A stretch of 17,093 nt of DNA from an uncultured Methanosarcinales archaeon (GTDB lineage: Archaea; Nanobdellota; Nanobdellia; Woesearchaeales; CAZKBD01): the NCBI GenBank assembly GCA_964550945.1, contig CAZKBD010000012.1, positions 11,602-28,694 on the forward strand, written 5' to 3'. The translations under genes and the position numbers were made by a program. The notes below the pieces were generated by a model, which made no database searches, was not told the DNA's origin, and saw only the letters and a list, made by a program, of their open reading frames with translations. Below are positions 5,464 to 8,326 of this stretch, piece by piece (the stretch's first letter is position 1; every line of letters begins with the position of its first letter).

Positions 5464-5799
5464 ATGGCAATAAAATATTTATTAATCGCAGCAATAGTGG
5501 TTTTTTTATTTAGCGGATGTTCCCAAACTGATAATATACAATCTTCTGAACAGCAATTCATGACCTATGTTGTTGACGGTTCTCAGGGAACAATGGACAC
5601 TTACACAATCTCAGAATACCAGCCAATTGATTTATCTGAATCTTTTGAGCAGGACAGAGCTGATATAGAATCCCAACGTAAATATGAAGCAGTCAGAAAC
5701 CAAGCTGACCGAGAGAAAAAAGAGAGCGAAAGATTAAAATGCTACAAAAAACACGATAAAAACGAAACAGAATACTATCTAGAAGAATGCGAAAATTAA
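5464..5799 (+). CDS. Small putative lipoprotein (hypothetical)
   Basis: MAIKYLLIAAIVVFLFSGC is a signal peptide with a lipobox-like FSGC. The rest is polar and charged, with no recognisable domain. Confidence 0.5.
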   Translation: MAIKYLLIAAIVVFLFSGCSQTDNIQSSEQQFMTYVVDGSQGTMDTYTISEYQPIDLSESFEQDRADIESQRKYEAVRNQADREKKESERLKCYKKHDKNETEYYLEECEN

Positions 5800-6359
5800 G
5801 TGTCAACAAAAATCATGTGCTTCTCTTTTCCTTTTATTTCTGCAAATATCCTCTTTATAATTGCCTTTTTTGGATCAGGCATCAGCTTAACCCTTTTCTT
5901 TATGTCTTCAAAATTCTCAAATGGCTTCTCTTTCCTTGCTTCAATTATCTCCCACATATGCTTTTTTCCAAGTCCTGGCAATAATTCAAGCTGGTGCATT
6001 CTGGTGCTTAATGGCTGAGCCTTGTTGTAGAAGTCAACAAAGCGCTTTTCATTTTTATTCACTATCTCTTTCACAATATACTCTAATTCATTCTTTGCTG
6101 TTTCTGTCAGCTTTTCAACCGGAAGCTTTCCCAATATATGGTGGATATCATCTCTTTTTCCTTCTCCAATGTAGACTACTGCATGAGGCTGCAGATGAAC
6201 ATCCTTTTTTGGCACTAACTCAAGCAAAACAAAATGCTCCTGGCCTAGAGCCTGGGCTATTGCAGTCTTTACATATGTTGGCCTTGAATCAAATGGATAG
6301 CCGTAAGGCAAAAAATCAAGGACAATTGCGAATTCTTCTTTTTGGGTGTCCATTTTCAT
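5796..6359 (-). CDS. DUF655-family protein (archaeal predicted RNA/nucleic-acid-binding protein with a helix-hairpin-helix)
   Basis: EEFAIVLDFLPYGY..., FVLLELVPKK, VVYIGEGKRD, RFVDFYNKAQPLSTRMHQLELLPGLGKKHMWEII..R...F.NFEDIKKRV. This family classically sits next to rpl21e-rpoF in archaea, as it does here. Confidence 0.8.
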   Translation of the reverse strand: MKMDTQKEEFAIVLDFLPYGYPFDSRPTYVKTAIAQALGQEHFVLLELVPKKDVHLQPHAVVYIGEGKRDDIHHILGKLPVEKLTETAKNELEYIVKEIVNKNEKRFVDFYNKAQPLSTRMHQLELLPGLGKKHMWEIIEARKEKPFENFEDIKKRVKLMPDPKKAIIKRIFAEIKGKEKHMIFVDT

Positions 6360-7261
6360 AATTTTAAGGTTGTTGTATACCTATGTGTTGCATTTAACCA
6401 ATCCTGCTCTAATTTTGCAACATTCTTTGCTGATTCTATCCTCTCATCCTTTAATCTCAGCAGTTTTTCCTTTTCTTTCAACAGGTGATATATCTTGATT
6501 TTTAATCTTTTCCTGACGCTTTCCTTTTGCTTAAGCTTGTTGAATATCTTTATTTCCTTCTGGTAATTGCTCTCCAAAGCAGTCAGCAAGGCTAATAATC
6601 TTGTAATCCAATGCGTGAAATTTTTGCTTTTTAGTATATCCTTCCTGATATTGTTTGCTGGCGGCAGTTTAGCCTCCAAATGGCATAACAGCTCTGACTC
6701 TTTTTTCAATATTGGCTCTAAATGATTTATCCCTAATTCTTTCTCTTCTTCAGCCTCTATCTCTTTTTTCTTGTAATCTTTTAGCAACCTTTTGTCTGTA
6801 AATATCAATTTCTCAATCAGCTCATATACTATCTGCTCAAGCTTTGTTATCTCTTCTTTGCTTAGGCTGTCTTCTTGCTTCTGCAGCTTTTGCAGCTCCG
6901 TCTTGCCCAATATCCCTATATTGATCTTCAGCAAGCCAAGCTCTTCCAAAAATACTGTTTCAAGGTAATAGTTTATATCCCTTAACTTCATTACTAATCT
7001 TCTTAGTAATGTCATATTAGCTTTTAAAATTGCTATTGCTTTATCCTCTTTTTTTAAGTCAATTGCTAATGTCTGGATTAGCAGTTCATGCAACTGTTTC
7101 AGCAGCAATGCTTTCTTGCTTTCAATGGTTATATCTTTCCTGAAAAGTAAAGCGATGTTTGGCTTTAACTTTTTATGCTTAACAGCATTTGCCTCTTTTA
7201 TTACTTTGCTAACTATTTCTGACTCTTTTATCTTAAACCACCTTATTAAACTGTATAACAC
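6356..7261 (-). CDS. Lys/Glu/Leu-rich coiled-coil protein (hypothetical). Start uncertain.
   Basis: The 301-codon ORF has heptad-like K/E/L composition and no recognisable motif. The track 'M' is a GTG (plus-strand cac at 7259..7261), and the first ATG is about 80 codons in. Its stop overlaps the DUF655 start (ATGA at 6356..6359). Confidence 0.5.
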   Translation of the reverse strand: MLYSLIRWFKIKESEIVSKVIKEANAVKHKKLKPNIALLFRKDITIESKKALLLKQLHELLIQTLAIDLKKEDKAIAILKANMTLLRRLVMKLRDINYYLETVFLEELGLLKINIGILGKTELQKLQKQEDSLSKEEITKLEQIVYELIEKLIFTDKRLLKDYKKKEIEAEEEKELGINHLEPILKKESELLCHLEAKLPPANNIRKDILKSKNFTHWITRLLALLTALESNYQKEIKIFNKLKQKESVRKRLKIKIYHLLKEKEKLLRLKDERIESAKNVAKLEQDWLNATHRYTTTLKL

Positions 7262-7275
7262 AGCCTATTTATAAA

Positions 7276-7384
7276 CATGTCGGAAATTCGGTGCTAAACG
7301 CACCGAATTTCTGAGCATGCTCAGAAATCAACAGATTTCTGACATGTCGGAAATTTTAGCGTATGGCTAAAATTTTTGAGCATG
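7276..7384. repeat. Three abutting imperfect hairpins that share CATG junctions (REP/BIME-like palindromic element cluster)
   Basis: Hairpin A, 7276..7319: perfect 12-bp stem gaaattcggtgc/gcaccgaatttc, loop taaac. Hairpin B, 7316..7346: catgctcagaaat / atttctgacatg, loop caacag. Hairpin C, 7343..7384: stem aaattttagc/gctaaaattt, loop gtatg. A 22-bp perfect palindrome, atttctgagcatgctcagaaat, sits at 7307..7328. The 13-mer catgtcggaaatt occurs twice (7276, 7343). Confidence 0.7.
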
Positions 7385-7418
7385 TCAAATTTAGAACTAA
7401 AATAAATATATAACGCCC

Positions 7419-7760
7419 TTATTTATTCTCAGCAAGAAATTCAGTAATAGTTGTAATTATCTTCTTTATTGAATCCTGGTTTAGCGTTACAGTATAACCT
7501 TGTAGAATTACCTTTAAATCATCTATAGTTGTAGGCATAATGTCAATTATCTTGGCTATATGCTGGTCTCTTAGCCTAGGGATGTTCAGCTTAGTAATCT
7601 TATCAGCCAGCTTATCATAATTCTTTGTGCTAGCAAACTGGCTGATATATTCCTCGGTCTTGTTAGCCCTGAAATTCAGCTCTTTATCCCTTTTTTTGAT
7701 TTTATCCAGCTCTTCTTTCAGCTGGTGCATGTTCAATGGCTTTTCTGATAGTATTTTCAT
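7419..7760 (-). CDS. rpoF: DNA-directed RNA polymerase subunit F (Rpo4 / Rpb4 homolog)
   Basis: 113 aa, immediately downstream of rpl21e (1-nt gap), which is the conserved archaeal position. The helical, charged sequence has KLNIPRLRDQHIAKIIDIMPTTIDDLKVIL, resembling the RpoF ...IAAKLVDLLPE...DIRVIF region. Confidence 0.75.
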   Translation of the reverse strand: MKILSEKPLNMHQLKEELDKIKKRDKELNFRANKTEEYISQFASTKNYDKLADKITKLNIPRLRDQHIAKIIDIMPTTIDDLKVILQGYTVTLNQDSIKKIITTITEFLAENK

Positions 7761-7761
7761 T

Positions 7762-8052
7762 TTATATCTTTTTTAAGTGCACAGGATGCACTATTAATGT
7801 TTTTTCCTTGCCTAGATCATTTATTGAAATTTCGTAGCATCTCCCTTTTTTTCCTTTTACTGTGCCTGACTTGCCATAAAATCTTGGAAAATAAAAACCT
7901 TTCTGAACAGCAGGCTCTGCGCCTAGATAGACCCTATCTCCTATTTTAAGGTCTTGGAAATAATTGCTTATGCTGATCTTGCCTTTCCGCCTGAAATTCT
8001 TGGATAGCTTGGACCTTGTCTTCCTGCGCATCCCGCCAATTCTTGTAACCAT
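7762..8052 (-). CDS. rpl21e: 50S ribosomal protein L21e
   Basis: MVTRIGGMRRKTRSKL...F..GD.V.......VQKG.....F.GK.G.V.G..G..Y.......GKEK.LIV.P.HL is typical of L21e. 96 aa. Confidence 0.9.
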   Translation of the reverse strand: MVTRIGGMRRKTRSKLSKNFRRKGKISISNYFQDLKIGDRVYLGAEPAVQKGFYFPRFYGKSGTVKGKKGRCYEISINDLGKEKTLIVHPVHLKKI

Positions 8053-8082
8053 ATCTGAAAGTGAAAATTAGCTGCATTTAAA

Positions 8083-8271
8083 AAGGTTTCTAAAATTGAA
8101 GATTTTAGAACCTTAGAAAATCTCTGATTTTCGTAAGGTGTCAAAAACCACCCATTGAAAACAGCTCTGGTTTTCAATGGGTGGTTTTTGAGCATGCTCA
8201 GAAATTTTTCACATCACCAAGGATATTGGCTTTCAGCCACTAGTCCTAGACTAGTGGAAAATTTCTGACAT
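8083..8271. repeat. Second cluster of hairpins with the same conserved base motif as 7276..7384
   Basis: Hairpin D, 8083..8114: aaggtttctaaaat/attttagaacctt. Hairpin E, 8116..8132: gaaaatc-tct-gattttc. Hairpin F: perfect 22-bp stem 8141..8162 / 8170..8191 (tcaaaaaccacccattgaaaac / gttttcaatgggtggtttttga). Palindrome tgagcatgctca at 8189..8200. Outer hairpin G, 8194..8271 (atgctcagaaattttt / ggaaaatttctgacat), encloses hairpin H, 8237..8257 (ccactagtc-cta-gactagtgg). Exact shared words with the first cluster: catgctcagaaat (7316 and 8193) and atttctgacat (7335 and 8261). Confidence 0.65.
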
Positions 8272-8326
8272 TTCTAAAATGCAGGCTTTCAATTATAAGA
8301 TGATAAACACTTCATATTCAGTAACG

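Follow-up and report, generated by a model that had tools for sequence, protein, structure and literature searches.

Two arrays of abutting hairpins adjoin rpoF and rpl21e

The window, by which we mean the whole 17,093-nucleotide stretch that we analysed, carries on its minus strand the genes for RpoF (Rpb4 family; 7419-7760) and L21e (7762-8052). One array of hairpins lies downstream of rpoF, and a second lies in the divergent spacer between rpl21e and rps6e. Direct reading of the letters bore out the three abutting hairpins of the preliminary description, at 7278-7382 (array 1). Unit A (7278..7317, plus strand) consists of TG (7278-9), the stem-loop TCGGAAATTCGGTGC/TAAAC/GCACCGAATTTCTGA (7280-7314), a bulged G (7315) and CA (7316-7). 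Unit B (7318..7344), which is of the minimal type and lies in the opposite orientation (minus strand), consists of TG, a bulged C (7320), TCAGAAATC/AACA/GATTTCTGA (7321-7342) and CA (7343-4); it scored 36.2 bits (E = 1.6e-10) against covariance model R1, and forms a head-to-head dimer with unit A. Unit C (7345..7382, plus strand) has TG, TCGGAAATTTTAGC/GTATG/GCTAAAATTTTTGA (7347-7379), a bulged G (7380) and CA. An inverted-repeat search recovered the 22-bp perfect palindrome reported at 7307-7328, and the G:T pairs at 7282/7312, 7349/7377 and 7350/7376 are where they had been placed.

Every unit is closed by TG...CA and contains a single bulged nucleotide, either a 3'-side G or a 5'-side C. 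Competition of neighbouring stems for a shared CATG, as had been proposed, is unnecessary, because each unit has its own closing pairs and the junction splits as CA|TG. The B/C junction, GACA|TGTC, joins two units outer end to outer end, the only such case among the 138 arrays in the matches listed. The proposed folding of array 1 held on both strands (z = -11.1 for the plus strand and -8.6 for the minus strand; 0/200 shuffles were as stable). The array had been thought to fill the whole gap to the rpoF stop; it stops at 7382, and 7411-7418 is plain spacer. At 7383-7410, the element finder and the covariance model called no unit. By eye, this stretch can be read with low confidence as a decayed minus-strand partner of unit C (TG, TCAAATTTAG-AAC-TAAAAT...; the bulged C is missing, as is most of the 3' arm), and hence at most as a fourth, decayed unit of array 1. 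Each unit in the window also starts with ATG TCR GAA AT and reaches a stop within 5-8 codons; we judged these micro-ORFs to be a by-product of CATG and A/T-rich loops.

We confirmed the TATA-type 10-mer noted at the edge of the array (TTTATAAATA; 7266..7275, minus strand) and found it conserved in orthologues; it is the TATA box of the downstream ~300-aa gene and no part of the element. It occupies the same place in orthologous loci without hairpins, indicating that array 1 was placed directly upstream of the box, between it and the rpoF stop.

The preliminary description had also spoken of a second locus. The base motif does recur, at 8139-8270, but this locus is longer than its two motif-bearing units, since the covariance model added two degenerate hairpins, extending array 2 to 8088-8270. 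Unit D (8139..8194, plus strand) has TG, TCAAAAACCACCCATTGAAAAC/AGCTCTG/GTTTTCAATGGGTGGTTTTTGA (8141-8191), a bulged G and CA, and supplies the AAAAA-type half of a head-to-head dimer (22-bp inverted repeat, 100%). Unit E (8195..8270, minus strand) has TG, a bulged C, TCAGAAATT and AATTTCTGA on either side of a 49-nt core (8198-8268), and CA; the core contains an inner hairpin, CCACTAGTC/CTA/GACTAGTGG, and the outer flank of the unit, TTTCTAAAA, matches the family flank consensus T-N-T-N-N-AAAA. The degenerate hairpins left of unit D (8088..8134, no strand assigned) are TTCTAAAAT/TGAAG/ATTTTAGAA (8088-8110) and GAAAATC/TCT/GATTTTC (8116-8132). With scores of 14.5 bits (E = 0.04) and 16.2 bits (E = 0.009), they are probably decayed units of array 2. 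The units are ordered +-+ in array 1 and +- in array 2, and array 2 sits between divergent promoters.

The hairpins belong to a family of head-to-head dimers

Written in one orientation, the unit reads TG-TCRRAAAY-(core of 3 to ~55 nt)-RTTTYYGA-G-CA. Most units are 21-44 nt long, with a bimodal length distribution (~21 and 40-44 nt). Minimal units have the TGTC tag, a stem that starts A-R-A-A-A and loops of 3-5 nt, and only AAAAA-type units have a T5 run after the stem. A pattern scan of species-representative genomes returned at least 119 matching stretches; about 111 of the 119 listed are genuine, with the full hairpin architecture, and they come from ~80 assemblies. The motif is therefore not confined to the two loci of the window, as had been considered, but is found at more than 100 places in other genomes, against ~17 exact matches expected by chance in a hand estimate from pattern degeneracy and collection size. 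Among the matches listed, nearly all hosts are Woesearchaeota, Nanoarchaeia or Pacearchaeota, with up to 7 loci in one MAG. The source genome was covered by the 17-kb window and near-identical short contigs, and same-strain contigs are broken or folded back where the hairpins lie. About 30 match records carry the title 'uncultured Methanosarcinales archaeon', an automated MAG name.

Among the 138 arrays in the matches listed, 73 are exact head-to-head dimers of the form TGTC...GA-GCATGC-TC...GACA, with the tags outside and the junction GCATGC in 73/73; a minimal dimer reads TGTCAAAAATCGAAGATTTTTGAGCATGCTCGGAAATCTCCGATTTCCGACAT. The two partners are mostly unlike: 34 dimers pair an AAAAA stem with a GGAAA stem and 17 pair an AAAAA stem with an AGAAA stem, as compared with 5 dimers of like partners. 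Since the partners usually differ, a dimer is two side-by-side hairpins and not one long hairpin.

We also examined whether pairing is retained in the variable cores, as had been claimed. Positions 9 and 10 of the stem are not imposed by the finder; they are Watson-Crick pairs in 89% and 82% of units (34% and 28% in controls), with all four pair types represented. In a set of 32 distinct units of 21 nt, pairing is kept in 98% of cells and 37 cells are doubly changed, a level reached by 0/500 shuffles. There is some circularity in these covariation statistics, since the finder had already filtered on positions 3-8, and a DNA palindrome may be complementary without selection on its structure. 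The suggestion that the G:T pairs signal G:U wobbles in plus-strand RNA did not hold up across the family, where the ratio of G:T to A:C is 37:25 in the whole set and 9:5 on the sense strand. Loop orientation relative to the unit showed no bias (CTTTG 8, CAAAG 7).

Elements are gained and lost at orthologous sites

We compared the spacer between rpoF and the next gene in related genomes. In L126, L131, L132 and L136 (77-79% DUF655 identity), this spacer is 65-82 nt long and hairpin-free. The spacer of L134 (82% identity) contains only ...ACCGACA^TATTTATAAATA, and in L128 (92% identity) a dimer is inserted exactly at this ...ACCGACA^ site. The window has the same dimer as L128 and one further unit, such that the spacer is empty in five relatives and filled in two lineages. 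Other sites vary too: L137 has three hairpins between rpl21e and rpoF, and L131 has four between genes that overlap elsewhere. In an all-pairs flank comparison, no two genomes had homologous genes on both sides of an array. The window lineage has gained elements both upstream of the TATA box of the post-rpoF gene and in the rpl21e/rps6e divergent spacer.

Among 140 flanking ORFs, covering 147 Pfam families, we found no enriched neighbour. Arrays lie in tandem, convergent and divergent spacers in numbers of 40, 12 and 17, which matches the spacer supply (p = 0.37-0.76), and these 69 arrays show no preference for gene 3' ends. Dimers are polar, with the non-AAAAA end facing a gene 5' end in a ratio of 34:14 (p = 0.0055), a bias that we tentatively attribute to target preference. 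Outside the non-AAAAA end, the sequence is T-rich and continues with A (91%), N and A (84%) up to TGTC. Some of the apparent mimicry in this flank could be decayed neighbouring units. We observed no target-site duplication, as direct repeats of 2-8 bp were at chance level at all four boundary offsets. Some flanks resemble tRNA halves; a link to tRNA genes was considered and dropped, since ARAGORN placed only 5/21 tRNAs at 60 nt or less from a unit and found no tRNA in the window.

Copies also lie inside coding sequences. Dimers are inserted in frame in the genes for CarB (L110), CarA (L122) and CTP synthase (L035), in three genomes. The CarB insert is 57 nt (19 aa) and is missing from 7 homologues, the CarA insert corresponds to a 17-aa gap relative to 6uel, and the CTP synthase insert of 62 aa falls between residues that are adjacent in 3nva. 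The three insertions are placed after TTTGACA^, TTGTTAATA^ and TTTTAGAAA^; all are in the same reading frame and encode the peptide MS-x-NRS...ISEHAQK-x-K-I/V-FD. These are the 3 clear intragenic cases among ~130 arrays in the matches listed; most copies are intergenic.

Transcriptional, regulatory and recombination roles are less likely

The preliminary description had proposed that the hairpins act in processing or termination of the rpl21e-rpoF transcript. More broadly, they could be cis-acting RNA structures (bidirectional terminators, pause sites or 3'-end protectors) that insulate closely packed genes, separating rpl21e-rpoF from the next gene. Many units do read AAAAA-stem-loop-TTTTT, resembling bidirectional intrinsic terminators; the rpoF stop and the conserved TATA box of the next gene flank array 1, and folds are very stable on both strands. 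Bacterial REPs have such secondary roles (PMC3733652). However, gene 3' ends are not enriched, and 17/69 arrays are divergent, as chance predicts, array 2 of the window being one of them. Orthologous spacers in relatives are hairpin-free, with plain T5-T6 runs, and the array-1 units end in TTTCTGA or TTTCCGA, without T5 and hence without the T-run that follows the stem of an intrinsic terminator. The sense strand has no excess of G:U over A:C, and the in-frame carA, carB and pyrG copies cannot terminate transcription. We therefore consider a cis-acting RNA role unlikely, although it fares better than the other alternatives.

A role as operators, also put forward earlier, would have the palindrome TTTYTGA-GCATGC-TCRGAAA (and GACATGTC) bound as a duplex by a global regulator or chromatin protein, with the cores incidental. 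The invariant junction, the perfect dyad symmetry at 7307-7328, the 34:14 polarity of dimers toward gene starts, and the positions of array 1 beside a TATA box and of array 2 between divergent promoters are all in keeping with such binding. Self-complementarity of the cores is nevertheless far above chance, which operators do not need. Convergent spacers are not depleted, copies occur within coding sequences, the neighbouring genes have no common function, and the distance to a TATA box is not fixed (9/56, versus 6/56 on the other side). Operators are accordingly improbable. We similarly rejected a promoter-carrying element: a TATA-like box directly follows ...GACAT in the window, L128 and a few other loci, but this is not general, as the same counts of 9/56 and 6/56 show.

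We consider marginally less probable still that the elements are attC-like or dif-like sites, in which a tyrosine recombinase acts on the folded strand, or on an arm-6 bp-arm core (TTTYTGA GCATGC TCRGAAA), and the arrays are a cassette-less relic or a recombination hotspot. Consistent with this are the conserved base with one extrahelical base, the variable terminal structure (3 to 55 nt), an inner junction arranged arm-spacer-arm as in recombinase core sites, and the absence of target duplication. Against it, no cassettes lie between the sites and no integrase is found among the neighbours; the sites are single or dimeric and dispersed, with no long arrays; and the attC R'/R'' consensus, GTTRRRY/RYYYAAC, is absent, as judged by eye. 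Recombination of this type overlaps with the mobile-element reading as a possible means of mobilisation, and is not a separate function.

Least likely are small structured RNA genes of one to three hairpins, acting in trans from their own promoters: the folds are stable and certain long-core subfamilies keep their sequence from genome to genome, with UGAA- or UAAA-type loops, but no promoter or terminator is kept at a fixed distance, loop orientation is unbiased (CTTTG 8 versus CAAAG 7), wobble pairs show no strand asymmetry, copies lie within ORFs, and Rfam 15 gave no match at gathering score in the window or five related loci, only sub-threshold matches to generic hairpins. C/D-box, H/ACA and k-turn RNAs were rejected by eye, with CUGA and ACA-like letters present but no C box, pocket or Rfam match.

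The hairpins are best explained as mobile palindromic repeats

We conclude, with a probability of roughly 0.7, that the hairpins are small non-coding mobile palindromic repeats of Woesearchaeota/Nanoarchaeia, an archaeal counterpart of REP/BIME elements and Rickettsia RPE. The REP/BIME-like mobile element among the earlier proposals is thus the one that we favour, on the basis of ~80 related genomes in the matches listed, alternating orientation, variable orthologous sites and in-frame insertions. We infer mobility from this distribution and not from a mechanism. The stem base counts against the mobile-element reading: its conservation in genomes that range from 28 to 57% G+C is unusually strong for purely selfish DNA and may reflect a host function.

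The site of insertion would be the 3' side of a T-rich ...A-N-A motif, a look-alike of the TTTTTGACA end of the element. Such target mimicry, the hairpin ends and the missing duplication suggest a single-strand 'peel-and-paste' or site-specific reaction, presumably the work of a host enzyme that acts in trans and recognises the conserved foot of the hairpin. Complementarity of the cores may be maintained by use of the folded DNA strand as substrate or by self-correction of palindromes, and some long cores may have arisen by nested insertion. Any effects on the rpl21e-rpoF or downstream transcripts, such as pausing or 3'-end protection, would be a by-product and not the reason for the element. 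A phmmer search of the 970 kb surrounding the elements, translated in six frames, with six RAYT/TIRYT sequences from PMC3733652 as queries found no RAYT/Y1 match at E <= 1, and no transposase or recombinase is enriched among the gene families flanking the arrays. A viral origin was rejected, since the one IMG/VR pattern match is a GC-rich coding region without a hairpin, and hence a chance match.

DPANN genomes are tiny and streamlined; a lineage-wide family of selfish repeats would show that they nevertheless carry and tolerate mobile DNA, even inside essential enzymes. An archaeal family that follows the dimer logic of bacterial elements and lacks a linked transposase makes the spread of 'orphan' REPs a wider problem; its clean insertion sites should be useful for working out the chemistry of cutting and joining. 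The hairpins break or fold back metagenomic assemblies, add spurious-looking protein inserts and may pass for regulatory RNAs or terminators; masking them is therefore advisable when DPANN genomes are annotated. The 26-nt model or scan pattern also provides a quick lineage marker for Woesearchaeota-type contigs.

Comparison with known systems

To our knowledge, descriptions of small REP-type elements come almost entirely from bacteria. The archaeal hairpins share the general properties of REPs in that they are short, multicopy, mostly extragenic palindromes at non-orthologous positions and in alternating clusters. They are not located preferentially downstream of genes; the family has no gene 3'-end bias, whereas bacterial REPs favour unidirectional and convergent spacers.

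Archaeal MITEs (Sulfolobus, Halobacterium, Haloquadratum, Desulfurococcus) are likewise small, non-autonomous and multicopy, with inverted termini (here TGTC...GACA). Unlike MITEs, the family described here has no target-site duplications and no parent insertion sequence seen with the same ends; it is much smaller (53-120 bp), and lineage-wide rather than species-specific. GTAG REP/BIME/REPIN elements (RAYT, IS200/IS605-type Y1 HUH) resemble it in being short, imperfect intergenic palindromes in alternating clusters without target duplication. As for REPINs, the dimer is the likely unit of spread, and recognition of the hairpin foot is a plausible mechanism. By contrast with REPINs, there is no GTAG tag and no RAYT-like gene in 970 kb around the elements, and the dimer partners abut and are unlike, with no single long hairpin of the REPIN type. 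Integron attC cassettes differ in that the archaeal units abut without an ORF between them and no integrase is among the enriched flanking families. The defining features of MITEs (target duplication), RAYT-REPINs (GTAG and RAYT) and integron attC sites are thus absent.

The likeness to Rickettsia RPE lies in small palindromes inserted in frame into unrelated, conserved housekeeping enzymes, absent from homologues, and adding a short conserved peptide (PMC10969869). RPE-1 is ~150 bp, compared with archaeal inserts of at least 57 nt, and the RPE host is an intracellular bacterium, whereas the archaeal family belongs to an episymbiont lineage.

Our literature searches agreed with the preliminary description that no archaeal element of such architecture has been described, and the family is apparently new; a close bacterial analogue exists in the CGTC/TGTC REPs (PMC3733652). 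As described in that paper (Di Nocera et al. 2013), the CGTC-tagged REP superfamily includes Neisseria dRS3, Rickettsia RPE-4/RPE-6 and Wolbachia CGTC-4, with families reported from five bacterial phyla only. These repeats have a tetranucleotide tag (TGTC instead in many), 8-9-bp stems starting with A/T pairs, loops of 4-5 nt and a 3-nt tail at the untagged end; they form mainly head-head dimers with tags outside, frequently heterodimers and in some cases 1-2 bp apart. In-frame intragenic copies occur, no dedicated transposase adjoins them, and families are similar across distant species. On our best reading, which relies on this verbal description, these bacterial repeats would be the closest counterpart in kind. 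By this description, both groups have predominant head-head dimers, often heterodimers, no adjacent transposase and in-frame copies, and the archaeal tag is TGTC, as it is in many of the bacterial repeats. They differ in that the tag TC of the archaeal units pairs with GA, leaving one bulged base only, whereas the CGTC REP tag is described as unpaired; the tail is GCA instead of CCA; the archaeal junction is always exactly GCATGC, with cores of 3 to ~55 nt; and the host is a DPANN archaeon instead of a bacterium. It is a speculative and rather improbable extension that the DPANN TGTC-tagged dimers and the bacterial transposase-less CGTC/TGTC REPs form one ancient class of single-strand hairpins, moved by a conserved host enzyme that would cut 3' of a ...GACA-like motif at the foot and paste beside a look-alike. 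If that were true, the movement of 'orphan' REPs would become directly testable through the clean carA, carB and pyrG sites and the one-sided target consensus.

Hairpin units and gene setting in the window

Direct reading of the sequence confirmed the three hairpin units that a preliminary description had placed at 7262-7418, downstream of rpoF. With closing pairs included, unit A occupies 7278-7317, unit B, in the orientation opposite to A, 7318-7344, and unit C 7345-7382. The G:T mismatches are correct at all three positions, as are the 22-bp palindrome at 7307-7328 and the minus-strand TTTATAAATA at 7266-7275, and folding of both strands is far more stable than that of shuffles (z = -11.1 and -8.6). 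Units of this array (array 1) have the form TG-TCRGAAAY-[core]-RTTTYYGA-G-CA, or its reverse complement TG-C-TC...GA-CA, with a single bulged base per unit, two pairs above the foot. Neighbouring units had been described as competing for a shared CATG; they need not, because CATG splits into the CA of one unit and the TG of the next. Array 2, consisting of units D (8139-8194) and E (8195-8270), lies in the divergent spacer between rpl21e and rps6e, preceded by two degenerate hairpins detected with a covariance model (8088-8110 and 8116-8132).

On the minus strand are rpl21e (7762-8052), rpoF (7419-7760), an ORF of ~300 aa without a Pfam match (6356-7261) and a DUF655 gene (5796-6359); rps6e and the eIF2-gamma gene, from 8379, are divergent to these. 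A protein of ~300-309 aa without a Pfam match lies between rpoF and DUF655 in the window and in three other Woesearchaeota loci (L126:9097-10020, L131:8965-9891, L132:9078-10004), and is absent from L137, where rpoF abuts DUF655. In the minus-strand region 7225-7275, the listed GTG start of the window ORF (7261) is only 4 nt downstream of the conserved TATA box, too short a distance for that promoter to transcribe it. In relatives the ORF starts with an ATG ~24 nt past the TATA box (ATGAGGGTGG...), a position at which the window and the related locus L128 read ATA/TTA AGG TGG. All units in the window open with ATG/GTG TCR GAA AT (M-S-E-I) and reach a stop within 5-8 codons (7276-7300, 7343-7369, 7344-7327 on the minus strand, and 8139-8159), in the frame that intragenic copies use; these openings are probably a by-product of CATG and A/T-rich loops.

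A dispersed family of two-hairpin elements

DUF655 homologues identify the lineage as Woesearchaeota. Scanning species-representative genomes with the pattern TGTCRRAAAYN{5,35}RTTTYTGAGCATG yielded at least 119 matching stretches, of which about eight of those listed are chance bacterial matches without a hairpin. The genuine matches listed come from at least about 80 assemblies titled Woesearchaeota, Nanoarchaeia/Nanoarchaeota, Pacearchaeota or "uncultured Methanosarcinales" (the last being automated names of metagenome-assembled genomes, MAGs), have a G+C content of 28-57%, and in nearly all of them GAGCATG runs into CTCRGA, with which a second, oppositely oriented unit begins. A rule-based finder identified 138 arrays among the matches listed: 73 are exact head-to-head dimers, TGTC...GA-GCATGC-TC...GACA, with the GCATGC junction in 73/73; 64 are single units, many of which are probably dimers whose partner is degenerate; and the only triple is array 1 of the window. 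Among these matches, dimer partners are mostly of unlike stem type (AAAAA/GGAAA in 34 and AAAAA/AGAAA in 17, versus five alike) and unit length is bimodal (~21 nt and ~40-44 nt). Certain long-core subfamilies are shared by different genomes.

Pairing reaches past the conserved foot. Across 32 different minimal units it holds in 98% of cells, and 37 cells show double changes, a result reached by 0/500 shuffles; the test is circular for stem positions 3-8, which the finder filtered. Positions 9 and 10, on which the finder put no constraint, pair in 89% of units versus 34% of controls and in 82% versus 28%, respectively, using all four pair types.

We also observed more complex arrangements. In L126:7600-7800, a AAAAACCACC...GGTGGTTTTT hairpin surrounds two further small units, suggesting that some long "variable cores" come from insertion into loops. 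In addition, a larger composite repeat, at least ~200 bp in size, contains the short dimer between long hairpins (e.g. GCAGGCGTTC...GGACGCCTGC) and occurs on no fewer than four contigs of the MAG JACQXV (L025:600-900, L028:6100-6262, L050:5950-6128, L088:600-850), and in a second MAG (L117:750-950).

Gain and loss of elements

We compared the spacer downstream of rpoF between related loci. In L126, L131, L132 and L136 (DUF655 identity 77-79%), the spacer to the next gene is 65-82 nt long, free of hairpins, and has the same TATA box as the window (...ATATTTATAAATA). The spacer of L134 (82% identity) reads ...ACCGACA^TATTTATAAATA, where ^ marks the insertion point, and L128 (92% identity) has a dimer exactly at ^, with cores unlike those of the window and pairing kept. 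The window spacer contains the dimer of the L128 site (B and A, in minus-strand reading), unit C and a possible relic. No target-site duplication was found at element flanks, and no homologous genes on both flanks are common to arrays of different genomes among the matches listed, nearly identical elements included.

Insertions private to other lineages also separate, with degenerate hairpins, genes that are otherwise tightly packed: three lie between rpl21e and rpoF at L137:9535-9654, genes normally 2-5 nt apart, and four between the ~300-aa ORF and DUF655 at L131:9892-10000, genes that overlap elsewhere. Both clusters have imperfect tags and are located inside an otherwise tight operon.

Dimers are present in frame within three conserved enzymes in three different MAGs. 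In CarB (L110:4327-4386), the insert of 57 nt (19 aa, MSVNRSAISDHAQKLKIFD) falls in the linker that precedes the second ATP-grasp half and is absent from 7/7 homologues compared. In CarA (L122:1188-1250), it corresponds to a 17-aa gap versus human CPS1, and in CTP synthase (L035:7445-7540), 62 extra residues separate positions 455 and 456, which are adjacent in 3nva. All three inserts use one common frame and orientation, encoding MS-x-NRS...ISEHAQK-x-K-I/V-FD, a peptide missing from homologues and solved structures.

We conclude that the hairpins form a dispersed palindromic repeat subject to gain and loss, which is commonly a two-hairpin heterodimer and inserts without duplication. The observation was real, and the first of the four roles initially suggested, a REP/BIME-like mobile repeat, was the right one, on the basis of dispersal, gain and loss, and in-frame copies. 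A practical reading of the window is two or three insertion events: in array 1, a dimer would have inserted immediately before the TATA box of the next gene and been joined later by another unit or dimer, and array 2, in the divergent spacer, would combine a dimer with older, decayed units.

The window locus also occurs on near-identical groundwater-metagenome contigs, several of which end or fold back at hairpins, apparently as assembly artefacts. Contig ends fall at 7322 (L002), 8191 (L004) and 7421 (L005); L004 (1-159) starts with an inverted copy of 8033-8191, folding back at unit D. The first 401 nt of L001 (L001:1-401) have no match in the window, diverging inside rpl21e, so this contig may be chimeric. 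The region upstream of the L128 dimer (L128:50-200) is not rpoF; it is GC-rich and highly structured-looking, contains a unit-like hairpin (CAGAAATCAC-GAA-GTGATTTCTC), and has no Rfam match at gathering score.

Placement, strand and neighbouring genes

An RNA processing or termination role had also been suggested. Arrays occur in tandem, convergent and divergent spacers 40/12/17 times, as expected from available spacer length (p = 0.37) or from the available spacers of ≥50 nt (p = 0.76), and placement shows no sign of a terminator or promoter element; a TATA-like box adjoining the element, as in the window, is an exception among loci. A transcript effect, if any, would be secondary. The same placement argues against operators for a DNA-binding protein, as do neighbouring genes without a common theme: 147 Pfam families among 140 neighbouring ORFs, none in more than three, speak against a regulon marker. 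A structured small RNA is not supported either, nor are the other RNA roles and the operators: no Rfam family matches at curated score in the window and related loci (sub-threshold matches are generic hairpins), G:T versus A:C mismatches stand at 37:25 in total and at 9:5 when read on the sense strand of flanking genes, and loops show no preferred orientation. The window has no tRNA, and only a few units in the loci lie near one.

Possible target preference and mechanism

Only one side of the dimer, the GGAAA/AGAAA end, has a conserved flank: a T-rich stretch (54-63% T, six positions), N, A (91%), N, A (84%), then TGTC. This flank mimics the far end of the element itself, TTTTTGACA^. The two arrays of the window conform to the pattern (GACA^TGTTTATAA and GACA^TTTCTAAAA), and the three coding-sequence insertions are preceded by TTTGACA^, TTGTTAATA^ and TTTTAGAAA^. 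Among dimers with one AAAAA partner (57 loci listed; 8271-8279 and 7267-7275 in the window), orientation is biased 34:14 (p = 0.0055) towards the GGAAA/AGAAA end pointing at a gene's 5' start, a polarity that may stem from one-sided target motif or choice, replication-strand bias or a promoter effect.

In single-strand "peel-and-paste" transposition (IS200/IS605, RAYT/REP), elements insert beside a look-alike of their own end, without duplication. Based on insertion of this kind beside an own-end look-alike and the lack of duplication, we propose that the archaeal repeat may move by an analogous route, with the conserved hairpin foot, bulged base and GACA end as likely recognition and cleavage signals for a putative enzyme acting in trans. 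A site-specific recombinase acting on the abutted-end junction GACA|TGTC, as between B and C, could also fit. The preliminary description had suggested looking for RAYT/IS200-type or other transposases; six RAYT/TIRYT sequences had no match within 970 kb around elements, and transposases were not enriched among neighbouring genes.

Comparison with known repeats

GTAG/RAYT REPs differ in tag, and their transposase was not found in the 970 kb around elements; a MITE is rejected for lack of target duplication, and a 2024 review lists archaeal MITEs only in Sulfolobus, Halobacterium, Haloquadratum and Desulfurococcus. We found no description of a palindromic repeat family in Woesearchaeota/DPANN in the literature searched, and the family is apparently undescribed. 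The closest description is that of the bacterial CGTC-tagged REP superfamily, a likeness of verbal description with membership unproven. In that superfamily (PMC3733652), the tag is often TGTC; stems of 8-9 bp start with A/T pairs, with loops of 4-5 nt and a 3-nt tail; the prevailing form is the head-head dimer with outermost tags, often a heterodimer, with partners 1-2 bp apart in some families; copies can be intragenic (Rickettsia RPE-4 and RPE-6); and there is "no dedicated transposase". Head-head heterodimers, intragenic copies and the lack of a transposase match the elements seen here, and tag, stem, loop and tail resemble theirs in outline. By contrast, the TGTC family described here has an archaeal host, pairs TC/GA to leave a single bulged base, has a GCA tail and an exact GCATGC junction, has highly variable cores, and lacks the 3'-end preference. 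The hairpins are archaeal representatives of an already known sort of selfish palindromic DNA, sharing the unsolved "no transposase" problem with the bacterial CGTC REPs, in a family that is lineage-wide in streamlined genomes and invades essential enzymes in frame.
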